From: Candidatus Omnitrophota bacterium
Lineage (GTDB): Bacteria; Omnitrophota; Gorgyraeia; Tantalellales; Tantalellaceae
Direction of reading: 5' to 3'
Length of the DNA stretch: 64,000 nt
Assembly (NCBI GenBank): GCA_049643885.1
Contig: JBARQV010000025.1
Span: 7,382-71,381 of the forward strand
Numbering within the stretch: the stretch's first letter is position 1; the number at the start of each line of letters is the position of its first letter. This document shows, one piece after another, positions 36,240 to 62,216 of this stretch. The notes under the pieces are model-generated. The model saw only the letters and a list, made by a program, of their open reading frames with translations. It made no database searches and was not told the DNA's origin. The position numbers and the translations under genes were made by a program.

Positions 36240-38027
36240 CTATGCCAGCTCGGCCGCTATATCGGGGACCAGTTCTTCCAGCTTGGACCTGCAGAATTCC
36301 TGCACTTCCTTTCCGGTCGTGAACGTCATGGCTTTTTCGGCGATTGCTTTGGCCTCGGAATATTTAACTGAACGTACCACCTTCCTGACCTCCGGAACGG
36401 CTATGGGGGAAGTACTGAACTCGTCAAGCCCCAGGCCTAAAAGAACCATGGTCATGTAAGCGTCACCTGCCATTTCTCCGCAAAGACCGACTTCGATGTT
36501 GTTCTTGTGGGCGTTGTCGATTATGGATTTGATAAGCTCCAAAATCGCGGGATGCGCAGGTTCATACAGGTACGCTATCTTCTCATTGACCCTGTCCACC
36601 GCCAGGGAGTATTGGATAAGATCGTTCGTCCCTATACTGAAAAAATCGGCTTCTTTTGCCAGAATATCGCTGGTTATCGCTGCCGACGGGACTTCTATCA
36701 TCACTCCTACCGGAATATTTTCGTTGAACGGGATCTTCTTTTTCTTGAGCTCGGCCTTGACTTCTTCCAGGATGACATTCGCCTGGCGCAGCTCGCTGAC
36801 ACCGGAGATCATCGGATACATCATTTTGATATTCCCGTAGGCCGAAGCCCTCAGTATGGCCCTAAGCTGTGTTTTGAAAATATCCGGCCGGGCCAGACAG
36901 AAACGGATCGCCCGCCACCCAAGAAACGGGTTCATCTCCCTGGGGATCTCAAGCTGGGAAAGGAATTTATCCCCGCCGAGGTCAAGTGTCCGTATGATAA
37001 CAAAACGGGGCTTGATCCTGGTCGCGACCGACTTATAAGCGTTGAATTGCTCTTCCTCGCTCGGCAGATCCCGTCTGTTCATATAAAAATATTCCGTCCG
37101 GTATAAGCCTATTCCTTCGGCGCCGTGCGAAATAACGCTGGCTACGTCTTCCGGCAGCTCGATATTCCCCGCTATGGTGACCTTTTTACCGTCACGCGTC
37201 TCGCTGGGCAGGGCCCTCATCTGGATAAGCTCGTGCTCCATGTGTTCATACTTTTTCTTGTCTTTCAGATACTTATCGAGAAAATTTTTCGTAGGATTGA
37301 CTATCACCACCCCGTGTATACCGTCCAGTATGACCTGATCTCCGGTCTGGACCGCGTCGGTCACTTTCTCCAGGCCCACCACTGCGGGTATCTCCAGGGA
37401 CTTGGCCATGATCGCGGTATGGGAGGTCCTTCCGCCTATATCAGTCGCGAACCCTATGACCCTGCCCTTGTGCATCATCGCCGTTTCTGAAGGAGAGAGG
37501 TCATAAGCTATCACTATCGATTTCTCTTCCAGCTCGTCCATACTCTTCTCCTCGGCTCCCAGGAGATTCCTCAAGATCCTCTTTCCCACATCGGTTATAT
37601 CGGTTATCCTGTCCCGGAGATATTCGTCCTTGGCTTCCGAAAGCACATTGACATATTTGTTCAAAACTTCGGCGAATACCGATTCGATATTTTTCTTTTT
37701 CTTTTTCAGTCTGGAGATGACCTCCTGGACGAGAACGCTGTCTTCCAGCACCAGAAGATGCGCGCTGAATATCTTTCCGTGTTCGACGCCGACCTCGCGG
37801 GAGATCTTCTTCTCTATCGCGACGATCTCTCTTTTGGTGTCCATCAGGACTTTTTTGAACCTGGATATTTCGGTGGGAATATCTTTTTCGGAGATGTTGT
37901 GAACAGGAGGAGACAGCTCTTCAGTCCCGAAGACGTATGCTTTACCGATGGCTATACCCGGAGCGGCCGGGATACCCTTAAGCTGCATCTGTTTTTTTAC
38001 GATCTGGCGGTTTGTCTTATCTTTCAT
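36240..38027 (-). CDS. ptsI: Phosphoenolpyruvate-protein phosphotransferase (PTS enzyme I)
   Basis: GIPAAPGIAIGKA, the phospho-His region GGRTSHTAIMAKSLEIPAVVG and the C-terminal PEP-utilising TIM barrel. The true start may be the internal MQLKG. Confidence 0.88.
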   Translation of the reverse strand: MKDKTNRQIVKKQMQLKGIPAAPGIAIGKAYVFGTEELSPPVHNISEKDIPTEISRFKKVLMDTKREIVAIEKKISREVGVEHGKIFSAHLLVLEDSVLVQEVISRLKKKKKNIESVFAEVLNKYVNVLSEAKDEYLRDRITDITDVGKRILRNLLGAEEKSMDELEEKSIVIAYDLSPSETAMMHKGRVIGFATDIGGRTSHTAIMAKSLEIPAVVGLEKVTDAVQTGDQVILDGIHGVVIVNPTKNFLDKYLKDKKKYEHMEHELIQMRALPSETRDGKKVTIAGNIELPEDVASVISHGAEGIGLYRTEYFYMNRRDLPSEEEQFNAYKSVATRIKPRFVIIRTLDLGGDKFLSQLEIPREMNPFLGWRAIRFCLARPDIFKTQLRAILRASAYGNIKMMYPMISGVSELRQANVILEEVKAELKKKKIPFNENIPVGVMIEVPSAAITSDILAKEADFFSIGTNDLIQYSLAVDRVNEKIAYLYEPAHPAILELIKSIIDNAHKNNIEVGLCGEMAGDAYMTMVLLGLGLDEFSTSPIAVPEVRKVVRSVKYSEAKAIAEKAMTFTTGKEVQEFCRSKLEELVPDIAAELA

Positions 38028-38048
38028 CCAGCATTTCCCCTGACCCGG

Positions 38049-38327
38049 CTAATTCACAACATCGGGTTCGATATCGTGAAGCAGGACCTCCGAAAGTTCC
38101 GCCACTGCCTCTTCAGCATCGTCCCCTTTGGCTATAATGGTTATGTTGGCCCCCTTCTCCGCGGCCAGCATAAGTATTCCCATGATAGATTTGCCGTTCA
38201 CTTCCTGATCCTCTTTTGTAATGGTTATATCACTGTCATATTTATTCGCTGTCTGAACGAAAATGGCGGCCGGCCTGGCGTGAAGCCCGGTCCTGTTCTT
38301 TACGATTATCTCTTTCCTTACTTCCAT
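38049..38327 (-). CDS. ptsH: Phosphocarrier protein HPr
   Basis: NRTGLHARPAA (active His15) and the regulatory Ser46 context GKSIMGIL. Confidence 0.85.
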   Translation of the reverse strand: MEVRKEIIVKNRTGLHARPAAIFVQTANKYDSDITITKEDQEVNGKSIMGILMLAAEKGANITIIAKGDDAEEAVAELSEVLLHDIEPDVVN

Positions 38328-38337
38328 TTCCCCGATC

Positions 38338-39582
38338 TCACTTCCGCTTTTCCTGGGACAATATATCCATGATCACATCCGAAAGCTTCATGGGATCATG
38401 CCTGACAAATTCCTTTATGCCCGCGATGTTCGCTTTCACCAGCTTGATCTTTTCCTCTTTAAACCAGCTCTCATCCCTTTCGCTTATCTCCACCGGATAC
38501 TTGTTCTCGAGCTTATACTTCTCGTAAAGCTGTTTGGGTATCCTCGAAACATTGGCCACGCAATAATCTATGATACCCGGTCCGGTATGTTTTATAATGG
38601 CCCTTACATGGTCGCTTACCGAAAAGTTTTCTGTCTCGCCGCCTTCCGTCATGACATTGCAGACATATATCTTCACCGCTTTTGCCCTGAGGATCTGCCT
38701 TTGAATTCCCTTGATGAGAAGGTTAGGCATCACGCTGGTATAAAGACTTCCGGGCCCCAGGATGATCACGTCGGCCTGGCTGATAGCATCGATCGATTCC
38801 TGTGTCGCTTTGCAGTCCCCGGGAGAAAGGAGCAACTGGTCTATAGGGCTCTCCCTCTCTTCACGTATCAGGCTTTCGCCGACTGTCTCCCTGCCATTCA
38901 GCCTTTTGGCCACGAGTTTTACCCTCTGCAGGGTCGCCGGGAATACGTTCCCGCGTATGGCCAGGACCTTACTTGACTCGGTTATGGCCTTGGCAAAATC
39001 CCCTGTGACCTTTGACATTGCAGTAATGAAAAGATTGCCGAAATTATGGCCTTTTAGCCCTTCTCCCTCACTGAACCGGAATTGGAACAGCGGCCCCAGG
39101 AGGTCCTCCGAATCGGCCAGGGCCACAAGACAGTTACGGATATCGCCCGGCGGCAAGACATCAAGCTCTTGGCGCAGACGCCCGGAAGAACCCCCGTCAT
39201 CGGCAACGGTCACTATCGCGGTTATATTGCTCGTTCTTTGCTTGAGGCCTGTAAGAAGGGTGGATAGGCCCGTCCCCCCGCCAACGACCACTATCTTCGG
39301 GCCCTTTTCCAGGATGCGCTTTTCATAAACTTTTTCGACCAGTGTGTTCTTGTCGCTTTCCGGCGCCAGGACCGTCATGAAGGATTTCAATATCCTCTTG
39401 ACGGCAAAGATCACGCACATCATGCCCAAGACAATGATAAGCCCGGCGATGGTCTTATTCTCCGAACTTCTCTCAAAGATCACGATCACGAAACCCATCG
39501 AGATCATGAGAATCCCGAAAACGGAAAGGGATATCCACCGTTTTATCAGCATTCCCGGATAGAGCCATTTAAGTCTTTTCAT
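38338..39582 (-). CDS. YvcK/CofD-like (UPF0052) gluconeogenesis-factor family protein with N-terminal TM anchor
   Basis: KIVVVGGGTGLSTLLTGLK...ITAIVTVADDGGSSGRLR...DIRNCLVALA, the YvcK signature. Confidence 0.8.
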   Translation of the reverse strand: MKRLKWLYPGMLIKRWISLSVFGILMISMGFVIVIFERSSENKTIAGLIIVLGMMCVIFAVKRILKSFMTVLAPESDKNTLVEKVYEKRILEKGPKIVVVGGGTGLSTLLTGLKQRTSNITAIVTVADDGGSSGRLRQELDVLPPGDIRNCLVALADSEDLLGPLFQFRFSEGEGLKGHNFGNLFITAMSKVTGDFAKAITESSKVLAIRGNVFPATLQRVKLVAKRLNGRETVGESLIREERESPIDQLLLSPGDCKATQESIDAISQADVIILGPGSLYTSVMPNLLIKGIQRQILRAKAVKIYVCNVMTEGGETENFSVSDHVRAIIKHTGPGIIDYCVANVSRIPKQLYEKYKLENKYPVEISERDESWFKEEKIKLVKANIAGIKEFVRHDPMKLSDVIMDILSQEKRK

Positions 39583-39590
39583 ATGGGTTA

Positions 39591-40064
39591 TTACTGGTTC
39601 TTCTTCTGTTCTTCTTCTTTAACGATCTTGAGTATTTCTTTCGCGTCTTTCGCCGTGCGCAACCTGTCCCGGACGAACTTGTCGTCCAGAAGACGTGAAA
39701 TCTTAGCCAGCGCCTTCAGGTGCGGCCCAGGGGTCTCACCCGGCGCAAGCAGCAGAAAAAGAATATAAGTAGGTTCCCCGTCCAGCGACTTGAAGTCTAT
39801 TCCTTTTTTCGATATAGCCATGGCTGCGGTCATTTTCTTGACGCTGGCGCACTTGGCATGAGGAATGCCTATGCCCTTGCCTATACCGGTAGACCCTAGA
39901 AGCTCCCTGTCTTTCAGCTTGCCCAGGATAACACCTTTGTCGGTTTTCTTGATACCGCCGGCAGCCGCTAAAAGATCCACCAGATCTGAAAGGGCCTCGT
40001 CCTTATCGTTGGATTGCAGGTTAACACTTAACGCTCCCGCATTAAGCAACTCTGATACTTTCAT
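39591..40064 (-). CDS. ptsN: PTS IIA(Ntr)-type regulatory protein
   Basis: PTS EIIA type-2 fold with the conserved His (GIGIPHAK). Confidence 0.75.
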   Translation of the reverse strand: MKVSELLNAGALSVNLQSNDKDEALSDLVDLLAAAGGIKKTDKGVILGKLKDRELLGSTGIGKGIGIPHAKCASVKKMTAAMAISKKGIDFKSLDGEPTYILFLLLAPGETPGPHLKALAKISRLLDDKFVRDRLRTAKDAKEILKIVKEEEQKKNQ

Positions 40065-40180
40065 TCTCTTTTCTCCTTGTACTTTTTTACCAAGCGGTTG
40101 TTTCTTGGAATATTTACAAAGTAATTAAACCTATTCATCGGGAAACGCGGCCATAAGACACCCGTCCAACGTATAAATGA

Positions 40181-40256
40181 TGGAGCGGGTGATCGGGCTC
40201 GAACCGACGACAATCACGTTGGCAACGTGATGCTCTACCAACTGAGCTACACCCGC
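40181..40256 (-). tRNA. tRNA-Gly (GCC)
   Basis: GCGGGTG-TA-GCTC-AGTTGGTA-GAGC-A-TCACG-TTGCCAA-CGTGA-TTGTC-GTCGG-TTCGAGC-CCGAT-CACCCGC-T-CCA. The cloverleaf and anticodon loop are clear, and CCA is encoded. Confidence 0.9.
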
Positions 40257-40306
40257 TCTTTACGCTACGGTTGCCTCAGCAACCCTTTACTCTGTATAGG
40301 TTTAAA

Positions 40307-40382
40307 TGGTACCCGCACTAGGGCTCGAACCTAGGACCCACTGATTAAGAGTCAGTTGCTCTACCAGCTGAGCTATGCGGGC
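40307..40382 (-). tRNA. tRNA-Lys (CTT)
   Basis: GCCCGCA-TA-GCTC-AGCTGGTA-GAGC-A-ACTGA-CTCTTAA-TCAGT-GGGTC-CTAGG-TTCGAGC-CCTAG-TGCGGGT-A-CCA. Confidence 0.88.
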
Positions 40383-40482
40383 ACGGTCGTTACTTATCAG
40401 CCGCATAGCGTCTTGTCCGCCGTAGCCAAATAATATCAAATGGTCCGGCGAAGGCGGAAGCTATGCGGGCGCATAGGTGCGT

Positions 40483-40512
40483 ATTATAGCATATAAATAA
40501 AAATGATTTCAA
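40483..40512 (-). promoter_or_regulatory. Putative sigma70-type promoter for the tRNA-Lys/Gly pair
   Basis: Minus strand: TTGAAA, an 18-nt spacer, TATAAT, about 95 nt upstream of tRNA-Lys in an AT-rich tract. Confidence 0.35.
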
Positions 40513-40530
40513 TAATTTATATTATAATGA

Positions 40531-41475
40531 CTAAAAGCTGTGGGTTTTAACGAAGTCTATAACCTCATCAAGTTTCGCTTCCGCCATGGAGATGCAGGTA
40601 TCGGCGCACCCGTAATAGACCCTTACCATATCTCCGCGCACTATCGCCGAGCTTGGAAAAACCACGTTCGGCACGTCCCCTACCCGTTCATACCCTTCAG
40701 TGGGGGCAAGCAGATAGTCTTTTGTCCGGTAAAGCACCTTCCAGGGTTTTTCCAGGTCCAGAAGGGCGCCGCCCATATAATAGATATAACCGTTACAGCT
40801 AGTCCAGACACCATGATAAATAAGGAGCCACCCTTCTTCTGTCTCTATAGGCACAGGGCCGGGCCCTGTCTTGGTGGATTGCCAGCTGCTCTTCTCGGTC
40901 CCGAAAACAAAACGGTGGCATCCCCAGTGAATGAAATCCGGACTGGTGGAGTAAAAAATGTCGCCGAACGGTGTATGCCCCCTGTCGCTGGGGCGGCTTA
41001 GCATCGCGTACTTACCGCCTATCTTCCTCGGGAAAATAACACAGTTGCGGTTAGCCGGCAAGGTGAGATTTTCCATCTGGCTGAACTGCTTGAAATCCTT
41101 AGTCGTGGCCATCCCGATTAAAGGCCCCTGCAGCGAGTCAAGGCACCAGGTAAAGTAATAAGTATCTTCGATCTTCGTCAACCTGGGATCGTAAGTCCTG
41201 TCCTTTATTGCAAGATACGGATCCCTGCTGTCCAGTTTCACAATATCGGGGTCAATCTCCCATTTTATGCCGTCTTTGCTTCTCCCTACATGCATGGTAA
41301 AGTTAAAGTCTATCTCATCTACCCGGAAAATGCCGGCATATCCGTCTTCGAATTCCACAATAGCACTGTTGTGTATGCTATTCGCGCGCGGGACCGCTTT
41401 CGCGGTGATTATTGGGTTCCCCTTATATCTTTTAAATACGGTTTCGTTCGCCATATCCCTCTCCTCCTTACCCAC
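40531..41475 (-). CDS. GH130-family glycoside phosphorylase/glycosidase (beta-mannoside phosphorylase-like)
   Basis: NPII...NSAIV..., WLLIYHGV and the five-bladed propeller signature residues of GH130 (DUF377). Confidence 0.7.
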   Translation of the reverse strand: MGKEERDMANETVFKRYKGNPIITAKAVPRANSIHNSAIVEFEDGYAGIFRVDEIDFNFTMHVGRSKDGIKWEIDPDIVKLDSRDPYLAIKDRTYDPRLTKIEDTYYFTWCLDSLQGPLIGMATTKDFKQFSQMENLTLPANRNCVIFPRKIGGKYAMLSRPSDRGHTPFGDIFYSTSPDFIHWGCHRFVFGTEKSSWQSTKTGPGPVPIETEEGWLLIYHGVWTSCNGYIYYMGGALLDLEKPWKVLYRTKDYLLAPTEGYERVGDVPNVVFPSSAIVRGDMVRVYYGCADTCISMAEAKLDEVIDFVKTHSF

Positions 41476-41554
41476 CTACAAGGGTTATATATTTGTTAGG
41501 AATTAATATATAACATGAAAAGCGTAAATTGGCAACTATATTATAGGGTCAGGA

Positions 41555-42568
41555 CTACCACTCTCTCTGGAAAGCCAGATGCAGTATCTTCCGGATAAGC
41601 TTTTTGTAGGAAATCCCCGCCTTCCCCGCCGATTCAGCAAGTGCTTCTTTTGGCGCCAGAACGGGGTTGGCGTTAGCTTCAATAATAAAGACCTCTCCTT
41701 CGGGAGTCAGGCGGATATCGAACCTGCCGTAACCGTCTATCATCAGCGCCCGGTGCGCCCTCTTGCAGATACTGAAGATCTTCTCCGGGATGCCGTTTGG
41801 AAGCCGCCCGGAGAACTCATCCTTTATCCCCCACCTTTTTCTGTATTCCTTGTCCCACTTAGCTTTGTAAGTGGCCAGTTTGGGCTCGTCATCGGGGACC
41901 TGGGTGAACTTCATCTCCCGGATGGGTAGGATCCGCAATCTGGTATGCCCCAGAATGCTGACATACAATTCCCTTCCTTCGACGTATTCCTCGGCAATGG
42001 CGTCCATATTAAACCGCTCGTGTATGAATTCAACTCTTTCGCTCATGTCCTTTTCATTTTCCACGAACGAAGCCTGGGCTATGCCGGTAGAAGCCTCCTC
42101 CTGGAGAGGCTTTACCAGAAGCGGAAAGTTAAGTTTCTTCGGATGCCAGATACGCTTGCCCTTGTGAAAATTGTGGAATCCGGGAACCTTTATCCTGTGA
42201 TAGGTCAATATCTTTTTGGTAAGGGCCTTATTATTGCAGATCATGAGGCCGGCTGGACCGCAGCCGGTATAAGGTATTTCCAATAGCTCCAGGACAGAAG
42301 GGATATTTTTATCGAGAGACGCCTTTCCCAGGAAGATCTCGGTAAGATTGAAGACCACATCTGGCCTGTTTTCCTTGACCTCATGCAAAAGAAGACTTAT
42401 ATCGTCGTAAATGCCCAGTGTCCTGACTTCGTGTCCTGAACCCTCCAGGGCCTCGACAACCGAGGCTTCAGTAAGCCAGTCTTCATGCGCAAATTTTTTA
42501 CTGAAATCCTGATCTTTCGGAGGAGTCCCGTCGCTGTCAAACAGCACAAGGACCTTCAACTTGCTCAT
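41555..42568 (-). CDS. D-Ala-D-Ala ligase-like ATP-grasp enzyme
   Basis: LLVKPLQEEASTGI, EEYVEGRELYVSILG and DIRLTPEGEVFIIEANANP, an ATP-grasp of the Ddl subfamily. Its ATG overlaps the stop of the upstream HExxH gene. Confidence 0.75.
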   Translation of the reverse strand: MSKLKVLVLFDSDGTPPKDQDFSKKFAHEDWLTEASVVEALEGSGHEVRTLGIYDDISLLLHEVKENRPDVVFNLTEIFLGKASLDKNIPSVLELLEIPYTGCGPAGLMICNNKALTKKILTYHRIKVPGFHNFHKGKRIWHPKKLNFPLLVKPLQEEASTGIAQASFVENEKDMSERVEFIHERFNMDAIAEEYVEGRELYVSILGHTRLRILPIREMKFTQVPDDEPKLATYKAKWDKEYRKRWGIKDEFSGRLPNGIPEKIFSICKRAHRALMIDGYGRFDIRLTPEGEVFIIEANANPVLAPKEALAESAGKAGISYKKLIRKILHLAFQREW

Positions 42569-43587
42569 CTTTCCCTCCTGTACCTCCCGGCATAATGATA
42601 GTTCATTGTCTGGGCCGTGACATATACCGAGACCTTCAGGACCGTATCCATCTCGTCCGGTCCCGCTTTAAGTCCAAGTTCTTTACACCTTTCAACGAGA
42701 TCTTTCAATAATTCGTTTATTATGTATTTTTTCTCTCCCGACCACAAAGCCACGTAATTCAGTATCTCCTTCCTGTGTTTCCGGATCAGTACATACGCTT
42801 TCATGCCGGTCTTTTCATCCCCGGGAATAAAGATCTTGTTGAGATTGATGTCGTGAAAATCGGAATAATAATCAGCGTAAAGACGTTTCTTTTTTTTATA
42901 GTGAGTCTTCAGCGTAGCTCTCAGCCGGGAGATGGCCCAGTATTTTTCGCCCTTTGCTTTTTTAGGCGGCCGGCCGGCTATCTCCTTCATGAGTTTGTCG
43001 ACATACTCGAGTTTCCTCAACGCCTTCCAGCCTTTATATTTTTCCTTCCAATCGGACTGGGGATCAACCCAGACGGCGAAAGTCTCAGCGAAATCCTCAT
43101 CGGGATGATACTGGGCATACCACCTTTCCAGATGTATGACGTAATTTTTGCTATAGGGCCTGTATTTATATCTTTCCGGATAATCCTTTGAAAAAGGCCC
43201 GAAGATATTCTGCCACCGTTTCCTCTTGTACAGCATGTACGCGTAATTTAAAGCGTGGCCCATCTCGTGCCTTAAAAGCTTCATGCAATCGGCCTTTGTC
43301 CCGCCTTCTACCTCAAGGTCCATTTTGTATTCCAGCTTTCTAAGGCGCGGATGCGCCAGGAAAAAGGGTATGCCTATGACAGGTTCACCGTCGGGGCAAA
43401 GCCATTCATCGGCAAGATAACAGGGCGGGTGGAGATCGATGCCCCTTTCGGAAAGTTCCGCGTAAAGCTGGGAGACGCCTTCTTCCAGGGGCGTCCCTTC
43501 TATCTTGAGCTCCAAATCACGAAACCGCAGGGAAAGCAGCTCTTCGTCGCTTAGTTTATCAAGCTCTGATTGTGTGATCTTCTTCAT
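42565..43587 (-). CDS. HExxH zinc-metallopeptidase-like protein (family unassigned)
   Basis: LLRHEMGHALNY, with a third-ligand candidate in DEDFAETFAVW 45 residues downstream (gluzincin-like). It is translationally coupled (ATGA) to the Ddl-like ATP-grasp gene. Confidence 0.5.
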   Translation of the reverse strand: MKKITQSELDKLSDEELLSLRFRDLELKIEGTPLEEGVSQLYAELSERGIDLHPPCYLADEWLCPDGEPVIGIPFFLAHPRLRKLEYKMDLEVEGGTKADCMKLLRHEMGHALNYAYMLYKRKRWQNIFGPFSKDYPERYKYRPYSKNYVIHLERWYAQYHPDEDFAETFAVWVDPQSDWKEKYKGWKALRKLEYVDKLMKEIAGRPPKKAKGEKYWAISRLRATLKTHYKKKKRLYADYYSDFHDINLNKIFIPGDEKTGMKAYVLIRKHRKEILNYVALWSGEKKYIINELLKDLVERCKELGLKAGPDEMDTVLKVSVYVTAQTMNYHYAGRYRRER

Positions 43588-44803
43588 ATCCCCACTTCAC
43601 GTTAAGGGCTACCGACATCAGCGCGAGATAGTCGCACAGATGCCTCGTTATCAGAAAATTCCTCCTGGTATAATCCTTCGCGTTCTCTCCCATTTTTTTA
43701 GCAACAGCGGGATTGTTCAAAAGGTATCTTATCCGATACGCACAGCCCTCGACAGAATTGATGACGTATCCCGTCCTTCCGTAAATGATCTGCATGGTAA
43801 TGCCCCCGACCGCTCCGCCTATGACCGGTTTTCCTTTCCACATGGCCTCAGCCACGGTCAGGCCAAAACCTTCTTTCAAGGATTTCTGGAGCACTATCGT
43901 GGCCGCTCTTTGAAGAGCATTTATCTCTATATGCGCATCAGGCGGAAGGTCTAAAACATATATATCCTTGTCCTTTGAAGCTTTTTCCTTCACCGCGTTA
44001 AGAACTTGCGCTCCTTCGGGATCATCCGCCGCCCCGCCTCCCGCCAGCACCAGGCAGCAATCGTTATATTTCTTAACGAGACCGTACGCGGCTATAACAC
44101 CGAGAGGGTCCTTGAACTTATCAAATCGGGAAACCTGGAGGATCATGGGTTTATCCGAAGGTATCCTGTAACGCTCCAGGACTTGCTTTATCTCTTCTCC
44201 GCTCAACTCCCTGTTCTTGTCGCTAAGGGGATCTATCGACGGATAGATCAGGAACTGGGGGATCTCAAGTTTCTGGGCAAAACTCGGCAGGGAAAATATT
44301 GCAGCGTCGTAATGGTTAACGTACTGTTTGATGAACTGCCAGATCTTTCTCTGCGGACGTGAAACATCTATATGGCATCTCCATACCCATTTCGCGCCTT
44401 CGGGTTTTTTCTCGATGAATCCAGCCGGCTGTGGGTCATGGATGATCGCGAAATCCGATCCCAGCGGGATCCGTCCGCAATTTTCGCTGTTAACCCTCCT
44501 GTATTCTTCATACATCTCGTGAGTTATTTCTTCCTCGTCACCCTGCAGGGCATTATGAAAGGATTTTGTCGTCTTGTAAAAAAGCGGGCTGCCCGTGAGC
44601 ACTTCCCAGCGGGTTTTAATTCCCATTTCCTCAAAAAGTGGAACCAGGCGATGCAGCATCTCTGCCACTCCTCCGCCATAACGCGTCGAATTGACGTGTA
44701 GAAAAGACTTCCCTTTCAGGCTTTCGGAAAGTTTCTGTACCAGGTCCACTATCCCCGCGGGAGCCACTTCACGGTATGATTCAAGTGTTATTTTCCCTTT
44801 CAT
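43559..44803 (-). CDS. treT: TreT-like retaining glycosyltransferase (GT4; trehalose glycosyltransferring synthase family)
   Basis: FLHVNSTRYGGGVAEMLHRLVP, HDPQPA, WRCHID, VSRFD.FKD, DDPEG and EGFGLTVAEAMWKGKPVIG track the TreT signature blocks. Start set to MKGKITL (44803). Confidence 0.65.
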   Translation of the reverse strand: MKGKITLESYREVAPAGIVDLVQKLSESLKGKSFLHVNSTRYGGGVAEMLHRLVPLFEEMGIKTRWEVLTGSPLFYKTTKSFHNALQGDEEEITHEMYEEYRRVNSENCGRIPLGSDFAIIHDPQPAGFIEKKPEGAKWVWRCHIDVSRPQRKIWQFIKQYVNHYDAAIFSLPSFAQKLEIPQFLIYPSIDPLSDKNRELSGEEIKQVLERYRIPSDKPMILQVSRFDKFKDPLGVIAAYGLVKKYNDCCLVLAGGGAADDPEGAQVLNAVKEKASKDKDIYVLDLPPDAHIEINALQRAATIVLQKSLKEGFGLTVAEAMWKGKPVIGGAVGGITMQIIYGRTGYVINSVEGCAYRIRYLLNNPAVAKKMGENAKDYTRRNFLITRHLCDYLALMSVALNVKWGYEEDHTIRA

Positions 44804-45444
44804 CTTCCCATTTCCTTTTCGCACAATTCAACGATCTTAGTCCTTAATGATTCCAAGCTGTACATGTAATAGTCTATCCCTTCGACTTTCCCGGCAAGTT
44901 CATCAAGCCCGAGCACGTCCTTTAGCCATATCGAAAAATCGTTTCTCCCCCTTCTGGTCCGGAGCCTCGCCTCGTAAGTATGATAATATATAGCGCTCGC
45001 GTCAACGGTCCTCAGGGCCTCAGTAAAACTTTCCAGGTCGTTGACAGTGATGCCCATCGGGACCTCAATGATCCTTGACTGCATGAAATAGAAAGGAGAG
45101 CCGTAAACGACCGAAGGGACTATTTTTATCTCGGAAAGATGCTTATCGATGATGTCTATAAGATCGTTCCTTATGTCGTCCAATGTCTTGTCTCGCGAGG
45201 GCATGACCGACGCGAGTTTCTCGCCCAGCACGCGGTCCCTTACCTGTATAGCTGCCCAGTTGGCGAAATCGTTCGGGTATTGTCCGGCAAGATAATAATG
45301 CCTTAAAAAATAACTGTGAGTGTGAAAATATACAGAATCCAAGGGGACGTCCTCGATAAGCTCCATAAGCGCAAGTTCATCGTCCGCTTTCTTGCCGAGG
45401 AGTTCCTTTAATTCCATGCATCCTATGAATTCGAATTCTTTCAT
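44800..45444 (-). CDS. Conserved hypothetical protein co-transcribed with treT-like gene
   Basis: 214 aa, soluble, no recognised catalytic motif. Its stop overlaps the treT-like start. Confidence 0.45.
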   Translation of the reverse strand: MKEFEFIGCMELKELLGKKADDELALMELIEDVPLDSVYFHTHSYFLRHYYLAGQYPNDFANWAAIQVRDRVLGEKLASVMPSRDKTLDDIRNDLIDIIDKHLSEIKIVPSVVYGSPFYFMQSRIIEVPMGITVNDLESFTEALRTVDASAIYYHTYEARLRTRRGRNDFSIWLKDVLGLDELAGKVEGIDYYMYSLESLRTKIVELCEKEMGR

Positions 45445-45559
45445 CTTTCACTCCGTGAAAAATTGACTTTACTTTATCAACCTCGCCCGCACCCGACCTG
45501 CGGCCGCGACGAGCCCCTCGCGTCGTCAAGGGCTTAAGGACTGGCGCGCCCGGCAGCGC

Positions 45560-45575
45560 TGATCCGGCTACGATC
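45560..45575. repeat. 16-nt duplicate of the tRNA-Arg(TCG) 3' end
   Basis: tggcgcgcccggcag is identical to 45720-45734, the tRNA 3' acceptor/T-arm end, and lies 144 bp downstream of the tRNA gene. It looks like an attL/attR-type direct repeat. Confidence 0.6.
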
Positions 45576-45719
45576 CTCCTACTCGTCGGATTGCTTAACG
45601 CCGGCCCAGCATCAAACTTTCTGTCCATAAAGTTTGTGACTCTTTGCCTAAATTTTCTCATTTATGGCAAGAGCTCTTCCTCCGGCCATTTAAAGCTTGT
45701 TCTTCCAACAAGCTTTAAA

Positions 45720-45796
45720 TGGCGCGCCCGGCAGGACTCGAACCTGCGACCTACTGGTTCGAAGCCAGCTACTCTATCCAACTGAGCTACGGGCGC
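45720..45796 (-). tRNA. tRNA-Arg (TCG)
   Basis: GCGCCCG-TA-GCTC-AGTTGGATA-GAGT-A-GCTGG-CTTCGAA-CCAGT-AGGTC-GCAGG-TTCGAGT-CCTGC-CGGGCGC-G-CCA. Confidence 0.88.
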
Positions 45797-47474
45797 GCAA
45801 AACACATCCTACCGCTTCGAATATCATCCAAACTTCCAGAAGTAATATCATACCACCGATTATCGCAAGATTCCATTGTCCAGAACCGAAGAACCCTAAG
45901 ACATTGACCGTCAGTGCCCAGCTCGAAGTGATCATCATAAAAACCATAGGCACGGCCGTGGGCCACGCGTTCGATCCTTTTTTTATAAGGTAGATCGACG
46001 CCACAAGAAGCACAAGACCTGCAAGAAGCTGGTTGCTTGTCCCGAACAGCGGCCAGAGCATGAGGGCACCTCCCCCCCCGCCCTGCGCGAACGCCAGGGC
46101 TGCCGCCGCCCCTACCGCCAGCAGGGTCGCGGGATACCTTTTCTGTAATATCTTGATCTTGGAACTCACTGCCAGTTCGGTGATGACGTAACGCTGAACG
46201 CGGGTGGCCGTATCCAGTGTTGTCCCCGCGAAAGAAGCCACCAATACGCCCACGATGGCATGCCCGTACTTCAAGGGTATGCCGAGGCTTCCCAGCATAT
46301 TAGCGCTGCCCTCCACAAAAGCCGAAACCTTCGCGGTAAGTCCCTGGGCTGCAGCCCAGCTGGAATAGTGCAGGTTCCAGGCGGCAAATCCGGTCAGAAC
46401 CTCGCCTCCCTCGCCTTTTGTGTACATCCCGATACCTGCCGCTACCGCGATGATGACCAGAACAGCCAGAAGACCTTCGGTAAGCATTCCCCCGTAAGCT
46501 ATAAAATGGATGTCTTCCTCGTTTTTAAGCTGTTTGGAGCTGGTCCCTGAGCTTACCAGGGAGTGGAAACCCGAGATAGCGCCGCACGCAATGGTAATAA
46601 ATAAAAACGGTAAAATGGGCGGCGCTCCTTCCGGAGCCAGTTGGATGGCCGGAGCTACTACCACCGGACGGGCAACAAGGATCCCAAGCACAAGAAGCGA
46701 GATACCTATGATAAGCTGGTGTGAATTTATATAATCACGCGGCTGCAGAAGGCTCCATACCGGAAGGACGGAAGCAAAAAAAGCGTATATGAAAAGCAGG
46801 ATTATCCATATGGCCAAGGGTGAAAATATCCCTACTGCGGGCATGGTAAAAGGCATATGTACACCAATGGCGATCGATATATACATCAGTATAACGGCTA
46901 TGATCGACATCATGGTTATATTGATCTTTTTTTTGTAAGCAAGCCAGCCGACGGTCATGGCAATAGGGATCTGGACCCATACCGGAAAGACCGACTGGGG
47001 ATACATGCGAAAGATCAGGGCGATGACCATCCCGAAGATCGCGACGACGATCCACAAGGAAAAGAGGATCACGAAAAGAAAAAGCATCTTTACCCGGGAG
47101 TTGATTATCCTGCTGGATAACTCACCGATAGATACCCCCTTGTTCCTGGTGGACATTATAAGGGCGGCGTAATCGTGCACTGCCCCGGCGAAGATGGACC
47201 CCAGGATTATCCATATAAGAGCGGGAACCCACCCCCATATAATAGCTATGGCCGGCCCGACTATCGGACCGGTCCCGGCGATCGAAGCGAAATGATGTCC
47301 GAAAAGGACTTCCTTATTGGTCGGGATATAGTCGATATCGTCCCTCAGCTCTTCGCTCGGCACGGGAGTAGCGGGATCAGCACGGAATATTTTCCTCGCT
47401 ATAAAGTTCCCGTAAAAGTGATACGCGAGGCCAAGAGCCGCGAAAGCGATTAGTACCAACCATACTGAACTCAA
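45774..47474 (-). CDS. cstA: Carbon starvation protein CstA (peptide/pyruvate transporter family)
   Basis: HHFASIAGTGPIVGPAIA, about 16 TM segments and FLFITIACGAISGFH. It is called with a TTG start. The annotated stop lies inside the tRNA-Arg gene (last 22 nt), so the real 3' end is uncertain. Confidence 0.75.
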   Translation of the reverse strand: MSSVWLVLIAFAALGLAYHFYGNFIARKIFRADPATPVPSEELRDDIDYIPTNKEVLFGHHFASIAGTGPIVGPAIAIIWGWVPALIWIILGSIFAGAVHDYAALIMSTRNKGVSIGELSSRIINSRVKMLFLFVILFSLWIVVAIFGMVIALIFRMYPQSVFPVWVQIPIAMTVGWLAYKKKINITMMSIIAVILMYISIAIGVHMPFTMPAVGIFSPLAIWIILLFIYAFFASVLPVWSLLQPRDYINSHQLIIGISLLVLGILVARPVVVAPAIQLAPEGAPPILPFLFITIACGAISGFHSLVSSGTSSKQLKNEEDIHFIAYGGMLTEGLLAVLVIIAVAAGIGMYTKGEGGEVLTGFAAWNLHYSSWAAAQGLTAKVSAFVEGSANMLGSLGIPLKYGHAIVGVLVASFAGTTLDTATRVQRYVITELAVSSKIKILQKRYPATLLAVGAAAALAFAQGGGGGALMLWPLFGTSNQLLAGLVLLVASIYLIKKGSNAWPTAVPMVFMMITSSWALTVNVLGFFGSGQWNLAIIGGMILLLEVWMIFEAVGCVLRARSSVG

Positions 47475-47500
47475 GATAACTCCCTTTAAGTCGGTATTTG

Positions 47501-47600
47501 TATGTCATCCCGGACCCGCCGAAGGCGGGATCCGGGACCAAATAATATTGTTATATGATCCCGGGTCTCGGCCTGAGGCCTCGCCCGGGATGACATATTG
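47501..47600. repeat. Family A REP/MITE-like element (copy A2, complete with terminal inverted repeats)
   Basis: tatgtcatcccggaCCCGCCGAAGGCGGGatccgggaccaaataatattgttatatgatcccgggtctcggcctgaggcctcgcccgggatgacatattg. The ends caatatgtcatcccgg / ccgggatgacatattg are perfect TIRs. Confidence 0.75.
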
Positions 47601-47601: not shown

Positions 47602-49167
47602 CTATCTCTTCTTCCAGGCGTAATACCTAAGACTGTCCTCCAGCCACTCGCGGCCGTTACGGACGAATTCCGTCCACCGCGAGGCAAGGCACATGCCCCT
47701 GGCAGTATCCGCGTTCCCCTCCCCTATCTTCTGCGAGACCGTGGCCAGGTCAAGCTGCAGGCGGATCGGAACCCGGTTCTTTTCATCTTCCGGAAGCAAT
47801 TTCGCAAGGCTGACCAGCGCGTCCGCTCCTTTAAGGAGTATATCAAAAAGGACTTTCTCTCCGCCTATCGCCCCAACCATGATCTCGTTTACCGGTCCCA
47901 GCCGAAGTATTTCCAGTTCCCCGGTCTGTTTATTGGAAATGTTGTCAGCTCCAAGGTATCCTATACCTTCTTCGGCAAAACCAAGCTGGAATATCCTGTG
48001 ATAAATGGTCTCAAGCCTGGGGCCGTTACTCGACAGGCGGTAATGCGATCTCAGCCCCCAGAGCCCGAAATCTATATGCTCGTTTACCAAAGGGATATAC
48101 CTCCTCTGGAATTTCTTTTCAAATATTTCTAGTGAAGAAACAAGTTTTTCTTCCGCTAGCTGCCGGTCTATGATCATTTTCGCGAGCTTCTCCCTGCGTT
48201 TCCCCGCGCATCCTTCGAGGTAATCTTTGAGTATTTTCAGGGCTACCGCGTCATCCGCGCCCTCGATGGGAAGATCCAGATGCAGGTAACTTGACCTCAT
48301 CTTTTCATCCGAGAAAAAGAGCCGGTATATCCATAAAAGCTCCTTCATCTTTGCTTCATTCGACGTATCGAGATCGATAAATGTCGGATGGATCTCCGAA
48401 ATATCTCCCGAAACCTTCGATAGGTCGGGTATGATGTAACCATCCCCGGCCTTGGTGATCCGGAAACCCCCAAGCCCGCCTCCGCCTTCATGGGGTTTGA
48501 CAAAAAAGGTGTCATCTCCGGTTTCCTCTATAAGTTCATCCACAGCATCAAACATATCCCCGACAACGGCCTTTATACTCTTCCCCTCGACAGGTATTTT
48601 TTTATACATGGCGACCTTATCCCAATTTTTGCCGTCATTAGAAAGCAGCCTGTACGTGCTGTCCTTGTCGGAAAAAACGCTCCCGGGGGCCGTCTCCTGA
48701 CCCGGAACTATAACGGCGCCCATACTCTCCAGATCCATCGCCACGGATACGTTATAAACATTTTTATCCACGCACTGGCTCATTACAAGCGTACTCCCGG
48801 GATACTCGTTCACTTCCTTCATCAGCTCGTCATGCGTGTTGACAACGGTCGATCGTATTTTCCATCCTTTCTCCGCGCACAACTCATTAAAAACACGGGC
48901 AGTCTCATAGGATGTGGGTAGATCGTCATGAGAAGCATTTATGATCACGATCTTTTTAGGAAGTTTATTCAATGATGGTTCCTTTTCCAGGCAGAATTCC
49001 CTGAAAAGGTCCTTCTCTCCAAGGAGCGAGTTGAACAAGTCAATAAGCCTGGTATTATAATCCCCTCCTTCACCGTCAAATATAAGTGACCGCAAATAGA
49101 ACGGCGCCTGGTAAGGGTCATCGCCCTTGTATCCGGTCACATAATATTTCGGGTCTCTTTCTATCAT
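47602..49167 (-). CDS. ATP-grasp-like ligase, 521 aa (unassigned family)
   Basis: Central FFVKPHEGGGGLGGFRI (ATP-grasp Lys and Gly-rich loop), a preceding Rossmann-like pre-domain (KKIVIINASHDD) and a long helical C-terminal extension. It starts 3 nt after the stop of the 482-aa ATP-grasp gene. Confidence 0.45.
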   Translation of the reverse strand: MIERDPKYYVTGYKGDDPYQAPFYLRSLIFDGEGGDYNTRLIDLFNSLLGEKDLFREFCLEKEPSLNKLPKKIVIINASHDDLPTSYETARVFNELCAEKGWKIRSTVVNTHDELMKEVNEYPGSTLVMSQCVDKNVYNVSVAMDLESMGAVIVPGQETAPGSVFSDKDSTYRLLSNDGKNWDKVAMYKKIPVEGKSIKAVVGDMFDAVDELIEETGDDTFFVKPHEGGGGLGGFRITKAGDGYIIPDLSKVSGDISEIHPTFIDLDTSNEAKMKELLWIYRLFFSDEKMRSSYLHLDLPIEGADDAVALKILKDYLEGCAGKRREKLAKMIIDRQLAEEKLVSSLEIFEKKFQRRYIPLVNEHIDFGLWGLRSHYRLSSNGPRLETIYHRIFQLGFAEEGIGYLGADNISNKQTGELEILRLGPVNEIMVGAIGGEKVLFDILLKGADALVSLAKLLPEDEKNRVPIRLQLDLATVSQKIGEGNADTARGMCLASRWTEFVRNGREWLEDSLRYYAWKKR

Positions 49168-49170
49168 TTT

Positions 49171-50619
49171 TTACCCGCTGCTTACCAGCTCGACCTCGCT
49201 CGCACTTCTTAAGCCGAGTTTATTATAAACTCTTGTTATTATCCCCCTCGCCTCGGGAGTCAGTTTTTTCCTGTTCGAAGGGTCAAGCGCTTCTCTCAAA
49301 AATTGTATCTTGCAGATAGACGCGTTCGGTTCGATGACCGAATACTGCCTGGGAACAGAACAAGTGACCAGTATATCATCCGGCCCGCGGCACTCGCCGA
49401 TGAAAGCGCTTTCTTTCCGCAGCACGAACTTTCTTTCCTCTTTCCGGTATATCCCCGGCTTGAGGTTTCCGGTAGCAACGTTCCTCTCCAGGCGGTTATG
49501 CAGGATTACCTGGCTTCCTTTTAAAGGATACATGAGTTCATCGTAAGGAAACTTCCTGAGATACTCCCTCATTACCCTGTCGTTTTTCTGGAGAAATTCC
49601 GCTATATGCAGCAAGAAAAGCATCCCCTTGCGTCCGGGCTGCATGCTTGTGAGCGAAGTGTAAAGGGAAGTCGAGTTCTGGAACCTGGGGTTTATCTCGA
49701 CCGGATATACAGTTTCGTCCTTGACCACAAAATCCATACCGAAGATGCCGCGAAAACCGGACCGGGACATCCATTCCCCGATGGCCCGCATGTTGCCGAC
49801 GGCCCCGTCTATTATTTTCCGCGGGAGCCCGCAGGCCGAAGCATAATCATTACCGCAGAACGCGGACGGAAAATTACTGCACTCCGGGCGGCCGGTGATC
49901 TGGACGGAAGGGAAAGCGCTGAAAACAGCCGGCCCTTTGTCCGTCGAGATTATGATGGCATTGCCGTTTAACGAGTACCCGTTTATATACCTGCGCATGG
50001 TCACTGTCTGATGGGGATAATTTCGACGCAGGCGGTTATATTCTTTTTCCTCATTGATGATAAAAGTAAAATTCCCGCTTGAACCGTATGGGAACTGTAT
50101 GACAAAAGGCAGGGACAACTCTTCGCGGAGGTCCCGGAACGTCTTCTTTTCCAGTTTTTCCACCAGACCCGGGATGCGGGGCAGGCCAAGGTCCCTCAGG
50201 CTTTTTTGAAGAAGCAGTTTATTATCAAAATGTTTTTTCAGTTTCTCCGGCATGGCGTAGATCCTGGGCCTTTTTGACAATGAGCTTCCGTTCTTCTCAA
50301 GTTTCCTCACAGAACGGTAACATAGGATATTCGCCGGTTTCTTGAAACTGTTCAGATAACTGAATATCTCGCGCCCGAGCGCACCCTTGAAACTTTCGTT
50401 CAGGTCCTCGTTAGACCAGTTCTTGCGAGCGCCTGTCTGCTTTTCTACCGAAAAGACATCCTCTTCTCTGAAATAATACGGGATATCGGTCCCGTAATCA
50501 CAGCTGATGATGAAATCCAGCGGGAGGACCCGGTTTATCCCGGCCGCGTCATGAGCGCGCTGCCCCATCCACCCCCACGGGCCATATTTTTCCTTTAGGT
50601 ATTCGACAATTTTCTTCAT
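49171..50619 (-). CDS. ATP-grasp ligase, 482 aa
   Basis: LPFVIQFPYGSSGNFTFII and GIFGMDFVVKDETVYPVEINPRFQNS, the ATP-grasp B and C-domain motifs, with an N-terminal extension of about 130 aa. Confidence 0.6.
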   Translation of the reverse strand: MKKIVEYLKEKYGPWGWMGQRAHDAAGINRVLPLDFIISCDYGTDIPYYFREEDVFSVEKQTGARKNWSNEDLNESFKGALGREIFSYLNSFKKPANILCYRSVRKLEKNGSSLSKRPRIYAMPEKLKKHFDNKLLLQKSLRDLGLPRIPGLVEKLEKKTFRDLREELSLPFVIQFPYGSSGNFTFIINEEKEYNRLRRNYPHQTVTMRRYINGYSLNGNAIIISTDKGPAVFSAFPSVQITGRPECSNFPSAFCGNDYASACGLPRKIIDGAVGNMRAIGEWMSRSGFRGIFGMDFVVKDETVYPVEINPRFQNSTSLYTSLTSMQPGRKGMLFLLHIAEFLQKNDRVMREYLRKFPYDELMYPLKGSQVILHNRLERNVATGNLKPGIYRKEERKFVLRKESAFIGECRGPDDILVTCSVPRQYSVIEPNASICKIQFLREALDPSNRKKLTPEARGIITRVYNKLGLRSASEVELVSSG

Positions 50620-50624
50620 AATAA

Positions 50625-50667
50625 TATGTCATCCCGGAATTCGCCGAAGGCGAATATCCGGGATCAA
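50625..50667. repeat. Family A element, half copy (A3)
   Basis: tatgtcatcccggaATTCGCCGAAGGCGAATatccgggatcaa. It lies in the 44-nt gap between the DUF1704 and ATP-grasp genes and starts 5 nt from the ATP-grasp ATG. Confidence 0.65.
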
Positions 50668-51764
50668 TTAACAATAAACCCCGGCAAGTACTTCGGCGGC
50701 TTCAAGATACCCTCGTCGAGCAGCTTCTTTACAATGCCGACATCTCTCAGGCCGATCTTGCCTATATAAAGAATACTTAAATTTCCTCGATTTTCAACAT
50801 ATCGCCGCATTTTAGGCCACCCGCTGATATAGTGGTAATCGCGGGGGAAACCACCCGGGTTAGATGTGTCCTCGATCCCCCTCTTCGCCCTTTCAGCCAG
50901 CCTGTAGGCCAGGTAATCCGGAAAAAACTCTCTGAGGGCCAGGAACATATCGTAAAACGAGACCTTGAGGCAAAGATCCGCCGCGAGTGTCCTTCCCGCG
51001 TAAAGCTTCATCTGCCGGGTGTCCGTCTCCAGGCACCCCGCCTTCTCTTCAGCAAGAATGGCCAGCCCTTCTTCCGTCTCATCATACCCGGCGAGCCCGT
51101 CCCGGAATATCTTGTAAGGCTGCTCTTCTCCGTTGATACCCCTGTAGACGTGCACCTCGATCTCGTGGACCTTCAACCTTTCGACTTCTTCTTTAGTGTA
51201 ATTGATGGCCGAATTTATATAGACCGTCCTGTCCTTTGATGAAACGGTGATCTTGGGAACGATCTTTCTGCTCAGGACGACTTCCCATCCGATGCCTTTT
51301 TCTTCCAGTCCCTTCCGCAGGACGGAAGCCATCTCCTCCGGCGGCACCGTTTCTTCGGGAAACTCGTATCGCCTTTCCCTGCTCTCTGAAAGGACATTCC
51401 CTGCGATGTCCAGGCATTCTCCGTCCGGCGCGCCGTACAACCTTACCGCGTTCACGGCGAACTGCGGATCGGTGCATTTGATGAGTTCCAGCTGCTCTTG
51501 TATAAAAACGATCTTGTCGATAAAGAGCCTGTGAATATCGTTGCTTTCGTCAAGGGCGTCCCTGGTCTCGCGAAGCCACCTTTCCTGGTAAAAGAACTCG
51601 ACGTCCTTATACTTGTAGACCGGATTATAACGGGCGCCCTTCTTGAAATTCGAAAAGAATTTCTCCTTTTCCTCTTTCTGGTTCAAAGGGGTCAGGTAAG
51701 AATAAAAATCGACCTCTCGCATGATCTCGCTTATGCGATTATCTATCCCGTGCAAATTTATCAT
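50664..51764 (-). CDS. DUF1704/MATCAP-like metallocarboxypeptidase-fold protein (QEGLA-motif family)
   Basis: An HExxxH-type motif (KVHEIEVHVY) and the family's signature ETEEGLAIL (QEGLA-type). Size is about 366 aa. Confidence 0.65.
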   Translation of the reverse strand: MINLHGIDNRISEIMREVDFYSYLTPLNQKEEKEKFFSNFKKGARYNPVYKYKDVEFFYQERWLRETRDALDESNDIHRLFIDKIVFIQEQLELIKCTDPQFAVNAVRLYGAPDGECLDIAGNVLSESRERRYEFPEETVPPEEMASVLRKGLEEKGIGWEVVLSRKIVPKITVSSKDRTVYINSAINYTKEEVERLKVHEIEVHVYRGINGEEQPYKIFRDGLAGYDETEEGLAILAEEKAGCLETDTRQMKLYAGRTLAADLCLKVSFYDMFLALREFFPDYLAYRLAERAKRGIEDTSNPGGFPRDYHYISGWPKMRRYVENRGNLSILYIGKIGLRDVGIVKKLLDEGILKPPKYLPGFIVN

Positions 51765-52449: not shown

Positions 52450-52495
52450 GTCCCCCTCCTTTGAAACTTAAGTATATGATATATCAGGGATAAAA

Positions 52496-60820: not shown

Positions 60821-60877
60821 CAGGGTTATTATAAAGGATTAAAGGTAATTGGTAAAGGTGATAAGTGGCGCGGGCGA

Positions 60878-60937
60878 AGGGATTTTTCTGTTTTCGTGCT
60901 TAAAATGAGCACTACACCACGGTTCCACCACGTTTTA
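60878..60937. repeat. About 55-bp repeated motif, family F copy 1
   Basis: gggatttttctgttttcgtgcttaaaatgagcactacaccacggttccaccacgtttt resembles 62164-62214. The shared blocks are ttttcgtgct.aaat and ccaccacg.ttt. Confidence 0.45.
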
Positions 60938-60942
60938 ATATA

Positions 60943-62214: not shown

Positions 62215-62216
62215 TC

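Follow-up and report, generated by a model that had tools for sequence, protein, structure and literature searches.

Ligases that work alongside a hydrolase are a known kind of system. VanA and VanX, for instance, form a pair of ligase and zinc dipeptidase, and dipeptide osmolyte systems that employ both a ligase and a peptidase also exist, N-acetylglutaminylglutamine amide (NAGGN) being one example. RimK and RimB provide a ligase-plus-peptidase precedent in the glutamylation of ribosomal protein S6 (PMC11957791); prokaryotic operons for ATP-grasp peptide tagging, with peptidases that would reverse the reaction, have been predicted (PMC3495828), and in cyanophycin synthetase CphA1 a zinc-peptidase site generates primers for the ATP-grasp enzyme (PMC9262961). 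Archaea, in turn, are known to make the compatible solute trehalose by way of TreT (PMC3634074, PMC7688234). Here, we analyse a stretch of 64,000 nucleotides from a Candidatus Omnitrophota bacterium (contig JBARQV010000025.1; hereafter the window), in which a 3.9-kb block of four minus-strand genes encodes, in order, an OrfY-like DUF5752 protein, a TreT-family glycosyltransferase, an HExxH zinc-metallopeptidase-like protein and an ATP-grasp ligase derived from D-Ala-D-Ala ligase (Ddl) (Table 1). On balance, comparison with other genomes makes it likely that, in this lineage specifically, two independent cassettes have been packed head to tail into one block: an orfY-treT trehalose cassette and a self-contained chromosomal couple of a zincin and a Ddl-derived ligase.

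Table 1. Features of the four-gene block, its boundaries and the other ligase/peptidase set of the window (positions are those of the window).
Feature	Position	Strand	Match or remark
OrfY-like DUF5752 protein, 214 aa; first gene of trehalose cassette	44800-45444	-	PF19027, E 3.5e-61
TreT-family trehalose glycosyl-transferring synthase, GT4, 414 aa	43559-44803	-	PF21269 TreT_GT1, E 6.8e-56, and PF00534
HExxH zinc-metallopeptidase-like protein, 340 aa, cytoplasmic; first gene of peptidase/ligase cassette	42565-43587	-	PF15887 Peptidase_Mx, core only
HEMGH zinc-binding/catalytic motif, residues 107-111 (H107, E108, H111)	43255-43269	-	
YAQYHPDEDFAETFAVW helix of HExxH protein, residues 157-173; candidate third zinc ligand and transition-state Tyr	43069-43119	-	
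Ddl-derived ATP-grasp amide ligase (predicted), 337 aa	41555-42568	-	PF07478 (Dala_Dala_lig_C), E 2.6e-23
GH130 glycoside phosphorylase, 307 aa; outside both cassettes	40531-41454	-	PF04041, E 2e-64
tRNA-Arg(TCG), upstream boundary of block	45720-45796	-	ARAGORN; Rfam 71 bits
tRNA-Lys(CTT) and tRNA-Gly(GCC), downstream boundary of block	40181-40382	-	ARAGORN; Rfam
MATCAP-family metallocarboxypeptidase	50664-51764	-	PF08014, E 1.7e-49
ATP-grasp_3 protein, 482 aa	49171-50619	-	
521-aa protein	47602-49167	-	no Pfam or NCBIfam match

Two sets of loci were compared. A profile search with the HExxH family gave 80 genome loci, which together with five context look-ups make 85, and a profile search with DUF5752 gave 80 metagenome loci, 66 of them with room downstream for the next gene. 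In 81/85 loci the ATP-grasp gene comes directly after the HExxH gene on the same strand, and three of the remaining four stop at a contig edge. The only non-truncated locus that lacks the ligase gene (L037, 5932-6990, in the Planctomycetota metagenome-assembled genome (MAG) chromosome CP070830.1) carries an open reading frame (ORF) for an unknown 233-aa protein instead. Neither TreT, DUF5752 nor GH130 is encoded within ~6 kb of the pair in any of the 85 loci. The reciprocal comparison gives the same picture: TreT lies directly downstream of DUF5752 in all 66 loci with room, the peptidase/ligase family stands beside DUF5752-TreT in 0/80 metagenome loci, and none of the 165 comparison loci has a GH130 gene. 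Outside the window, all four genes are found in this order only on same-species contigs that encode an identical ATP-grasp protein. Relatives at 70-77% identity have the pair with no TreT or DUF5752 gene upstream; where the ligase is 75-77% identical, the pair lies behind glmS, behind a GNAT gene or alone. In two other Omnitrophota MAGs both cassettes are present, ~85-96 genes apart as judged from locus tags (GF409_06780 vs GF409_06355; JXD21_01625 vs JXD21_01145, the latter two on one 216,718-bp contig). A preliminary description of this DNA had read the four genes as one operon for a glycosylated or peptide-type solute; with no such adjacency in the 85 pair loci or the 80 DUF5752-TreT loci, that reading does not hold, whereas the coupling it saw between ligase and peptidase is a general property of the family.

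The block itself is tightly packed, with stop and start codons overlapping at all three junctions. Public gene calls for the source contig give the same four ORF coordinates, and ORFs, junctions and Pfam matches all agree with the gene identities first proposed, including a GH130 gene just downstream. The DUF5752 and TreT genes overlap by ATGA (44800-44803), which places the true TreT start at ATG 44803 instead of the upstream GTG 44824 of the ORF list; the TreT 3' end and the HExxH gene start share 29 nt (43559-43587), and the HExxH and ATP-grasp genes again overlap by ATGA (42565-42568). The GH130 gene starts with ATG 41454, 100 nt past the ATP-grasp stop, and its product scores below every NCBIfam equivalog cut-off. 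On the coding strand, the genes have no terminator-like site between them; the promoter and terminator scan was uninformative, with terminator counts close to shuffle expectation. No riboswitch or leader RNA was found in 39500-47600, the only Rfam matches there being the three tRNAs. These tRNA genes bracket five minus-strand genes, the four of the block and GH130, with Arg-TCG upstream and Lys-CTT and Gly-GCC downstream. Such a tRNA-flanked site could be a rearrangement or insertion hotspot that would account for the unusual packing. Base composition within the five-gene block is unremarkable.

The peptidase/ligase pair behaves as a unit across a wide range of bacteria. The ligase start overlaps the peptidase stop in 39/63 loci (as ATGA in 19), and the gap is at most 30 nt in 17 more. 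At 50% identity the family falls into 2699 clusters, and at least 600 species-level genomes carry it; its proteins are uniform in length (~340 aa) and share 45-70% identity across phyla. Carriers belong to a dozen or more phyla and include Omnitrophota, Planctomycetota, Verrucomicrobiota, Lentisphaerota (Lentisphaerales), Kiritimatiellia (Kiritimatiellae), Elusimicrobiota (Endomicrobiales), Acidobacteriota, Nitrospirota, Myxococcota, Methylomirabilota, Gemmatimonas, Alphaproteobacteria and others; Plesiocystis pacifica SIR-1 (Myxococcota) is a cultured carrier. All-against-all clustering of flanking ORFs found no other recurrent neighbour: alternate-frame artefacts aside, no cluster occurs in more than 9/83 loci, the next ones being generic response regulators (9 loci) and mnmA (5 loci). 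There are no domain fusions either, as the longer homologues (P0364, P0433, P0450, P0467, P0477 and P0502) carry no extra Pfam domain, and a tblastn search of 72,556 plasmids and 50,697 phages found no homologue. Judged by sequence, the pair is a chromosomal, self-contained and housekeeping-like unit in which both sets of catalytic residues are complete.

Several other roles were considered for the pair. An anti-phage defence or mobile conflict system was rejected, given the lack of any PADLOC match and of plasmid or phage homologues. Likewise rejected was a third gene or a precursor gene, such as one for a peptide made by ribosomes and modified post-translationally (RiPP): no conserved small ORF lies within the 450 nt downstream of the ligase, and no neighbour recurs. 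RimK-like action on ribosomal protein S6 found no support; in one pair locus (L002) rpsF lies ~5 kb away, and the C-terminus of its S6 product, ...AEGATN, is not Glu-terminal. CA_C2195 (PMC4000134) proved to be an unrelated M28-like protein.

The first half of the block resembles known trehalose-synthesis genes. The window glycosyltransferase matches Thermoproteus uzoniensis TreT (PDB 6zj4) with an E-value of 1.6e-126 over residues 8-394, i.e., nearly its full length, and Pyrococcus horikoshii TreT (PDB 2x6q) with an E-value of 4.5e-114, and it combines the TreT N-terminal domain with a GT4 C-terminal domain in full-length similarity to characterised TreT. Its score against the Thermococcales-specific NCBIfam equivalog model, 408 bits, is below the cut-off of 775 of this lineage-specific model. 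The DUF5752 family profile matches the solved OrfY of Thermoproteus tenax (PDB 4cso, “OrfY protein, transcription factor”) with an E-value of 4.5e-20 over residues 6-205, so that the first protein of the block has the Pfam match, the similarity to solved OrfY and the position next to treT that mark an OrfY. As in the orfY-treT systems of T. tenax, T. uzoniensis and the Thermococcales, the order DUF5752-then-TreT is conserved in the comparison loci and both proteins match the OrfY and TreT structures; the difference is that the host here is a bacterium, and the role of OrfY is not established. The two genes reportedly form an operon in T. tenax, a finding ascribed to Kouril et al. in 2008. This half of the block is thus predicted to be an ordinary trehalose-synthesis cassette, i.e., known biology, in which TreT would convert nucleoside diphosphate (NDP)-glucose and glucose into trehalose, a compatible solute.

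Two variants of such loci were seen among the metagenome set. At L148 (1868-3250), a single ORF directly upstream of TreT encodes an MscS mechanosensitive-channel domain (PF00924) and a full DUF5752/OrfY domain, a fusion which suggests that OrfY-type proteins link trehalose synthesis with osmosensing. The cassette is often found next to OtsA/OtsB genes. In a class of DUF5752-TreT loci at 38% identity (L143, L145-L147), genes for OtsA (GT20), a trehalose-phosphatase and an alpha-amylase-family enzyme flank the cassette, and the OtsA is extended at its N-terminus by a long, sensor-like part; at these loci, two routes to trehalose lie together.

The HExxH protein carries the features of a zincin. 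Its HEMGH is the only HE..H motif in any window ORF of at least 120 aa, and H107, E108 and H111 are present in 83/83 loci, as are Y157, H161, D165 and E168 further downstream, with E164 in 81/83. Such invariance argues that HEMGH is not a chance motif, and the reality of the motif and its distal Glu, as first noticed, is thereby upheld. As in gluzincins (clan MA), the HExxH helix (predicted, 98-116) is followed by another (predicted, 162-174), which bears the candidate acidic third ligand. PF15887 Peptidase_Mx matches the window protein with 27.2 bits, at a cut-off of 27, through the core residues 105-174 only (~70 residues), and this core matches in 53/53 aligned homologues. In the AlphaFold2 model, which has a predicted local distance difference test (pLDDT) score of 85, the HExxH and YAQYHPDEDFAETF segments lie on two helices adjoining a small beta-sheet; helical regions are added at both ends, an acidic one at the N-terminus and a large basic domain at the C-terminus. 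The best Foldseek matches in the PDB are all M34 peptidases, i.e., anthrax lethal factor and the Pro-Pro endopeptidases PPEP-1/Zmp1, though they are weak (E 0.04-0.5). No solved relative is detectable by sequence, a profile search of the PDB with the family returned only noise, and a Pfam scan of the N- and C-terminal parts separately gave nothing significant for the C-terminal domain. The window protein shares with M34 zincins and PF15887 the HExxH motif plus a downstream Tyr...Glu helix, yet it differs from M34 zincins, which are secreted, in being cytoplasmic, with no signal peptide or transmembrane segment, and in its extra conserved N-terminal and basic C-terminal helical domains, for which there are no detectable relatives. 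The family has a median isoelectric point (pI) of 9.2, and its C-terminal domain one of 9.85. The conserved loop YKYRPYS (residues 139-151) is the sole low-confidence region of the model, a pattern that would be typical of a partner- or substrate-binding segment. By its residues and their conservation, the protein is a genuine zincin-type protein, predicted to hydrolyse peptide bonds.

For the ATP-grasp protein, Ddl/Van is the nearest family by sequence, profile and fold. Its AlphaFold2 model (pLDDT 89.7) matches many Ddl structures in Foldseek, with template modelling (TM) scores of ~0.75 at 20-24% identity, yet scores against all NCBIfam Ddl/Van models stay below cut-off (best NF002378, 140.3 bits vs 243; TIGR01205, 114.9 vs 245.65). 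Residues were mapped by alignment to E. coli DdlB, the reference sequence being identical to PDB 1iov, and counted over 76 loci. The ATP/Mg/acyl-phosphate residues are retained: DdlB K97, K144, E180, E187, K215, R255 and D257 correspond to K114, K153, E193, E200, K237, R282 and D284, each in 76/76 loci, and E270 and N272 to E297 and N299, each in 75/76. Also invariant are K118, S160 and R286 (100% of loci), with N301 in 75/76. The preliminary description had left open whether the D-Ala-binding residues of true Ddl are kept, and they have diverged. At the D-Ala1 site, the GGxSxExxVS motif that contains DdlB E15 is absent, the N-terminus of the ligase reading VLVLFDSDGTPPKDQDF, and S150 and Y216 of the triad are replaced by A159 and W238 (W in 71/76 loci). 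The D-Ala2 carboxylate site, tested as DdlB G276, S281 and L282, is not conserved: G276 is replaced by the variable residue V303, and S281 by a conserved acidic residue, E/D308 (E in 48 and D in 24 of the 76 loci). Thus, although the three-domain ATP-grasp fold and all ATP, Mg and acyl-phosphate residues of Ddl/Van ligases are kept, the D-Ala residues have gone, a conserved Arg/Lys/Trp-rich segment enlarges the omega loop and the N-terminal domain is so diverged that it can barely be aligned to Ddl. The family median pI is 8.6, and the window contains no second Ddl-like ORF. Given the loss of D-Ala-specific residues and the sub-cut-off scores against all Ddl/Van models, the enzyme is not a bona fide Ddl; it is an amide ligase, predicted to be active, with a different substrate pair.

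How does this pair compare with the described systems? In common with RimK/RimB, with the predicted tagging operons and with the eukaryotic (tubulin) TTL/MATCAP pairing, an ATP-grasp ligase is encoded with a peptidase able, as predicted for the pair, to undo its product, in a cytoplasmic and chromosomal setting. In contrast to these systems, the ligase is Ddl-derived rather than RimK/TTL-type, and the peptidase is a zincin with weak likeness to lethal factor rather than a retropepsin, transglutaminase or MATCAP protein; from RimK/RimB it further differs in that the S6 tail of one pair locus does not fit. The pair also shares with Ddl/Van plus VanX the combination of a ligase with a zinc hydrolase, yet the partner here is an HExxH zincin and not an M15 dipeptidase, and cell-wall gene context is lacking. 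With CphA1 it shares the action, inferred in the case of the pair, of a ligase and a metallopeptidase on one product; CphA1, however, is a single large polypeptide, whose Mur-ligase domain and inverted HxxEH site are both absent from the window pair. The cyanophycin analogy of the preliminary description accordingly stands as ligase/peptidase logic but not as architecture, since Pfam and PDB searches returned Ddl-type ATP-grasp and PF15887 only, with no CphA architecture or S51 cyanophycinase. The peptidase/ligase half of the block is therefore a known kind of system in a combination of families for which no description was found: a full-text literature search returned none for a zincin with a Ddl-derived ATP-grasp enzyme, a search outside which lies the ATP-grasp amidoligase survey of Iyer et al. 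2009.

The window holds one more ligase/peptidase set, which bears out the remark in the preliminary description that two such pairs are present. On the minus strand at 47602-51764, a MATCAP gene, an ATP-grasp gene and the gene for a 521-aa protein follow one another with gaps of 3-44 nt. It is this MATCAP/ATP-grasp_3 set that is the bacterial counterpart of the tubulin TTL/MATCAP pairing, and it was not found near the HExxH/ATP-grasp pair in the other loci (85 examined). The MATCAP gene is directly preceded, on its own strand (51766-53896), by a nitroreductase-family gene and a radical-SAM gene similar to spore photoproduct lyase.

As to mechanism, the ligase would use ATP to phosphorylate a carboxylate, and the acyl-phosphate so formed would be joined to an amine to give an amide (peptide) bond, while the zincin would hydrolyse the same or a neighbouring bond on the ligase's substrate. 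The two would then form a make-and-trim couple that may serve to write and erase, to prime or to proofread. We favour, speculatively, an anionic peptide or protein tail as substrate over a cell-wall dipeptide, since the two proteins are conserved, basic and cytoplasmic and the pair needs no other conserved neighbour. A peptide or protein tail is likewise favoured over a free dipeptide by the high identity across phyla, the conserved basic pI, the additional conserved domains and the endopeptidase-like fold. Extending this, the cassette might be a hitherto undescribed, reversible peptide-tagging (write/erase) system that acts on a conserved cytoplasmic protein or another anionic macromolecule, a proposal we put forward tentatively and consider rather unlikely as it stands. 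A number of points weigh against these interpretations and against the separation of the two cassettes. The overlapping junctions make co-transcription of all four genes likely in this genome, and a local functional link is possible. In a related Omnitrophota locus (L086), the pair is followed downstream, at ~0.8 kb, by a TreT-family paralogue with 37% identity to the window TreT. For the peptidase, the fold match is weak and the Pfam match barely reaches the cut-off. No substrate, product or target was found, nor a conserved precursor ORF or third gene at the loci. The acidic residue 308 at the DdlB S281 position and the basic pI give no single direction for substrate charge. Finally, the protein-tail version would be an analogy and not a result, and the one S6 tail that was checked gave a negative answer. 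As a separate observation, the L086 paralogue (10817-12244, 475 aa) has no OrfY partner and is followed by genes for PEGA, GT2 and GH42-like proteins in what resembles an exopolysaccharide (EPS) cluster.

Four other explanations have to be weighed against two packed cassettes with a make-and-trim couple. The strongest is that a small soluble di- or oligopeptide, serving as osmolyte, signal or storage compound, is produced and broken down by the pair, independently of TreT and possibly in relation to stress. This is possible, if unlikely: the relatives of the ligase, Ddl/Van and, more distantly, the L-amino-acid ligases, all join small molecules, the pair needs no conserved partner or precursor gene, and a compatible-solute cassette adjoins the pair in this genome; however, the closest folds of the peptidase are long-cleft endopeptidases (lethal factor, PPEP-1) and not dipeptidases, its large, conserved and very basic helical C-terminal domain would be unexpected in a dipeptidase, and for a secondary-metabolite function the degree to which the pair is conserved across phyla is unusually high. 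We regard as improbable a system for a poly(amino acid) such as cyanophycin or poly-Glu, in which the ATP-grasp enzyme elongates and the zincin makes primers or mobilises the polymer. CphA1 does unite an ATP-grasp enzyme with a primer-cutting zinc-peptidase site (PMC9262961), and two basic proteins would suit an acidic polymer, yet there is no Mur-ligase domain, CphA N-domain or S51 cyanophycinase, and the ligase is a single Ddl-sized domain set, with no CphA among its PDB matches.

The explanation closest to the preliminary description, that all four genes, perhaps with GH130, belong to a single pathway for the synthesis and turnover of a compatible solute or storage compound that is glycosylated or peptide-type, appears very improbable. 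It would fit the three overlapping junctions, the lack of a terminator-like site between the genes, the role of TreT in making a compatible solute and the TreT-family paralogue near the L086 pair. Against it stand the comparison loci, none of which repeats the adjacency, and close relatives that do without the arrangement; the tens of genes that separate the two cassettes in other Omnitrophota MAGs; the absence of GH130 from the comparison loci; and the fact that DUF5752-TreT is explained alone as orfY-treT with trehalose neighbours. A cell-wall module, i.e., an alternative D-Ala-D-X ligase with a D,D-peptidase that remodels peptidoglycan precursors in a VanA/VanX-like manner, is the least probable of all. 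Although Ddl/Van is the closest family by sequence and fold and VanA/VanX is a ligase and zinc-dipeptidase pair, neither the D-Ala1 site (E15 motif, S150, Y216) nor the D-Ala2 site (S281) is kept, the N-terminal domain of the ligase barely aligns to Ddl, no mur/fts or van genes recur beside the pair, and the peptidase is an HExxH zincin instead of an M15 VanX-type enzyme.

Elsewhere in the window, a nitrogen-PTS (phosphotransferase system)-like cluster lies downstream of the tRNAs (36240-40064) and encodes an EIIA (PTS_EIIA_2), a YvcK/CofD-family protein, HPr and Enzyme I, with a sugar nucleotidyltransferase gene next to it (35481-36224). Over the last 4 kb of the window (60001-64000), G+C falls from ~0.49-0.52 to 0.41 and then 0.37, and this low-G+C stretch may be foreign or otherwise distinct DNA.

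Taken together, the comparison means that the idea of a glycopeptide-solute operon can be dropped. The pair that remains is absent from the well-studied model phyla and has apparently never been studied. Its substrate, once found, would assign a function to thousands of genes now annotated as “D-alanine-D-alanine ligase” or “putative zinc-binding metallopeptidase”, the Ddl misannotation of the ligase family would be corrected, and the pair could reveal a new bacterial cycle of making and breaking amide bonds. Should the peptide-tagging proposal prove true, the pair would correspond, in bacteria, to RimK/RimB or to the TTL/MATCAP cycle of tubulin, with a Ddl-derived ligase and a lethal-factor-like peptidase as its components, and the tagging system would span Omnitrophota, the Planctomycetota-Verrucomicrobiota-Chlamydiota (PVC) group, Acidobacteriota, Nitrospirota, Myxococcota and further phyla that are little studied. 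Finding the substrate of the pair would be of particular relevance in Omnitrophota, where the window analysed here holds two distinct ligase/peptidase sets.

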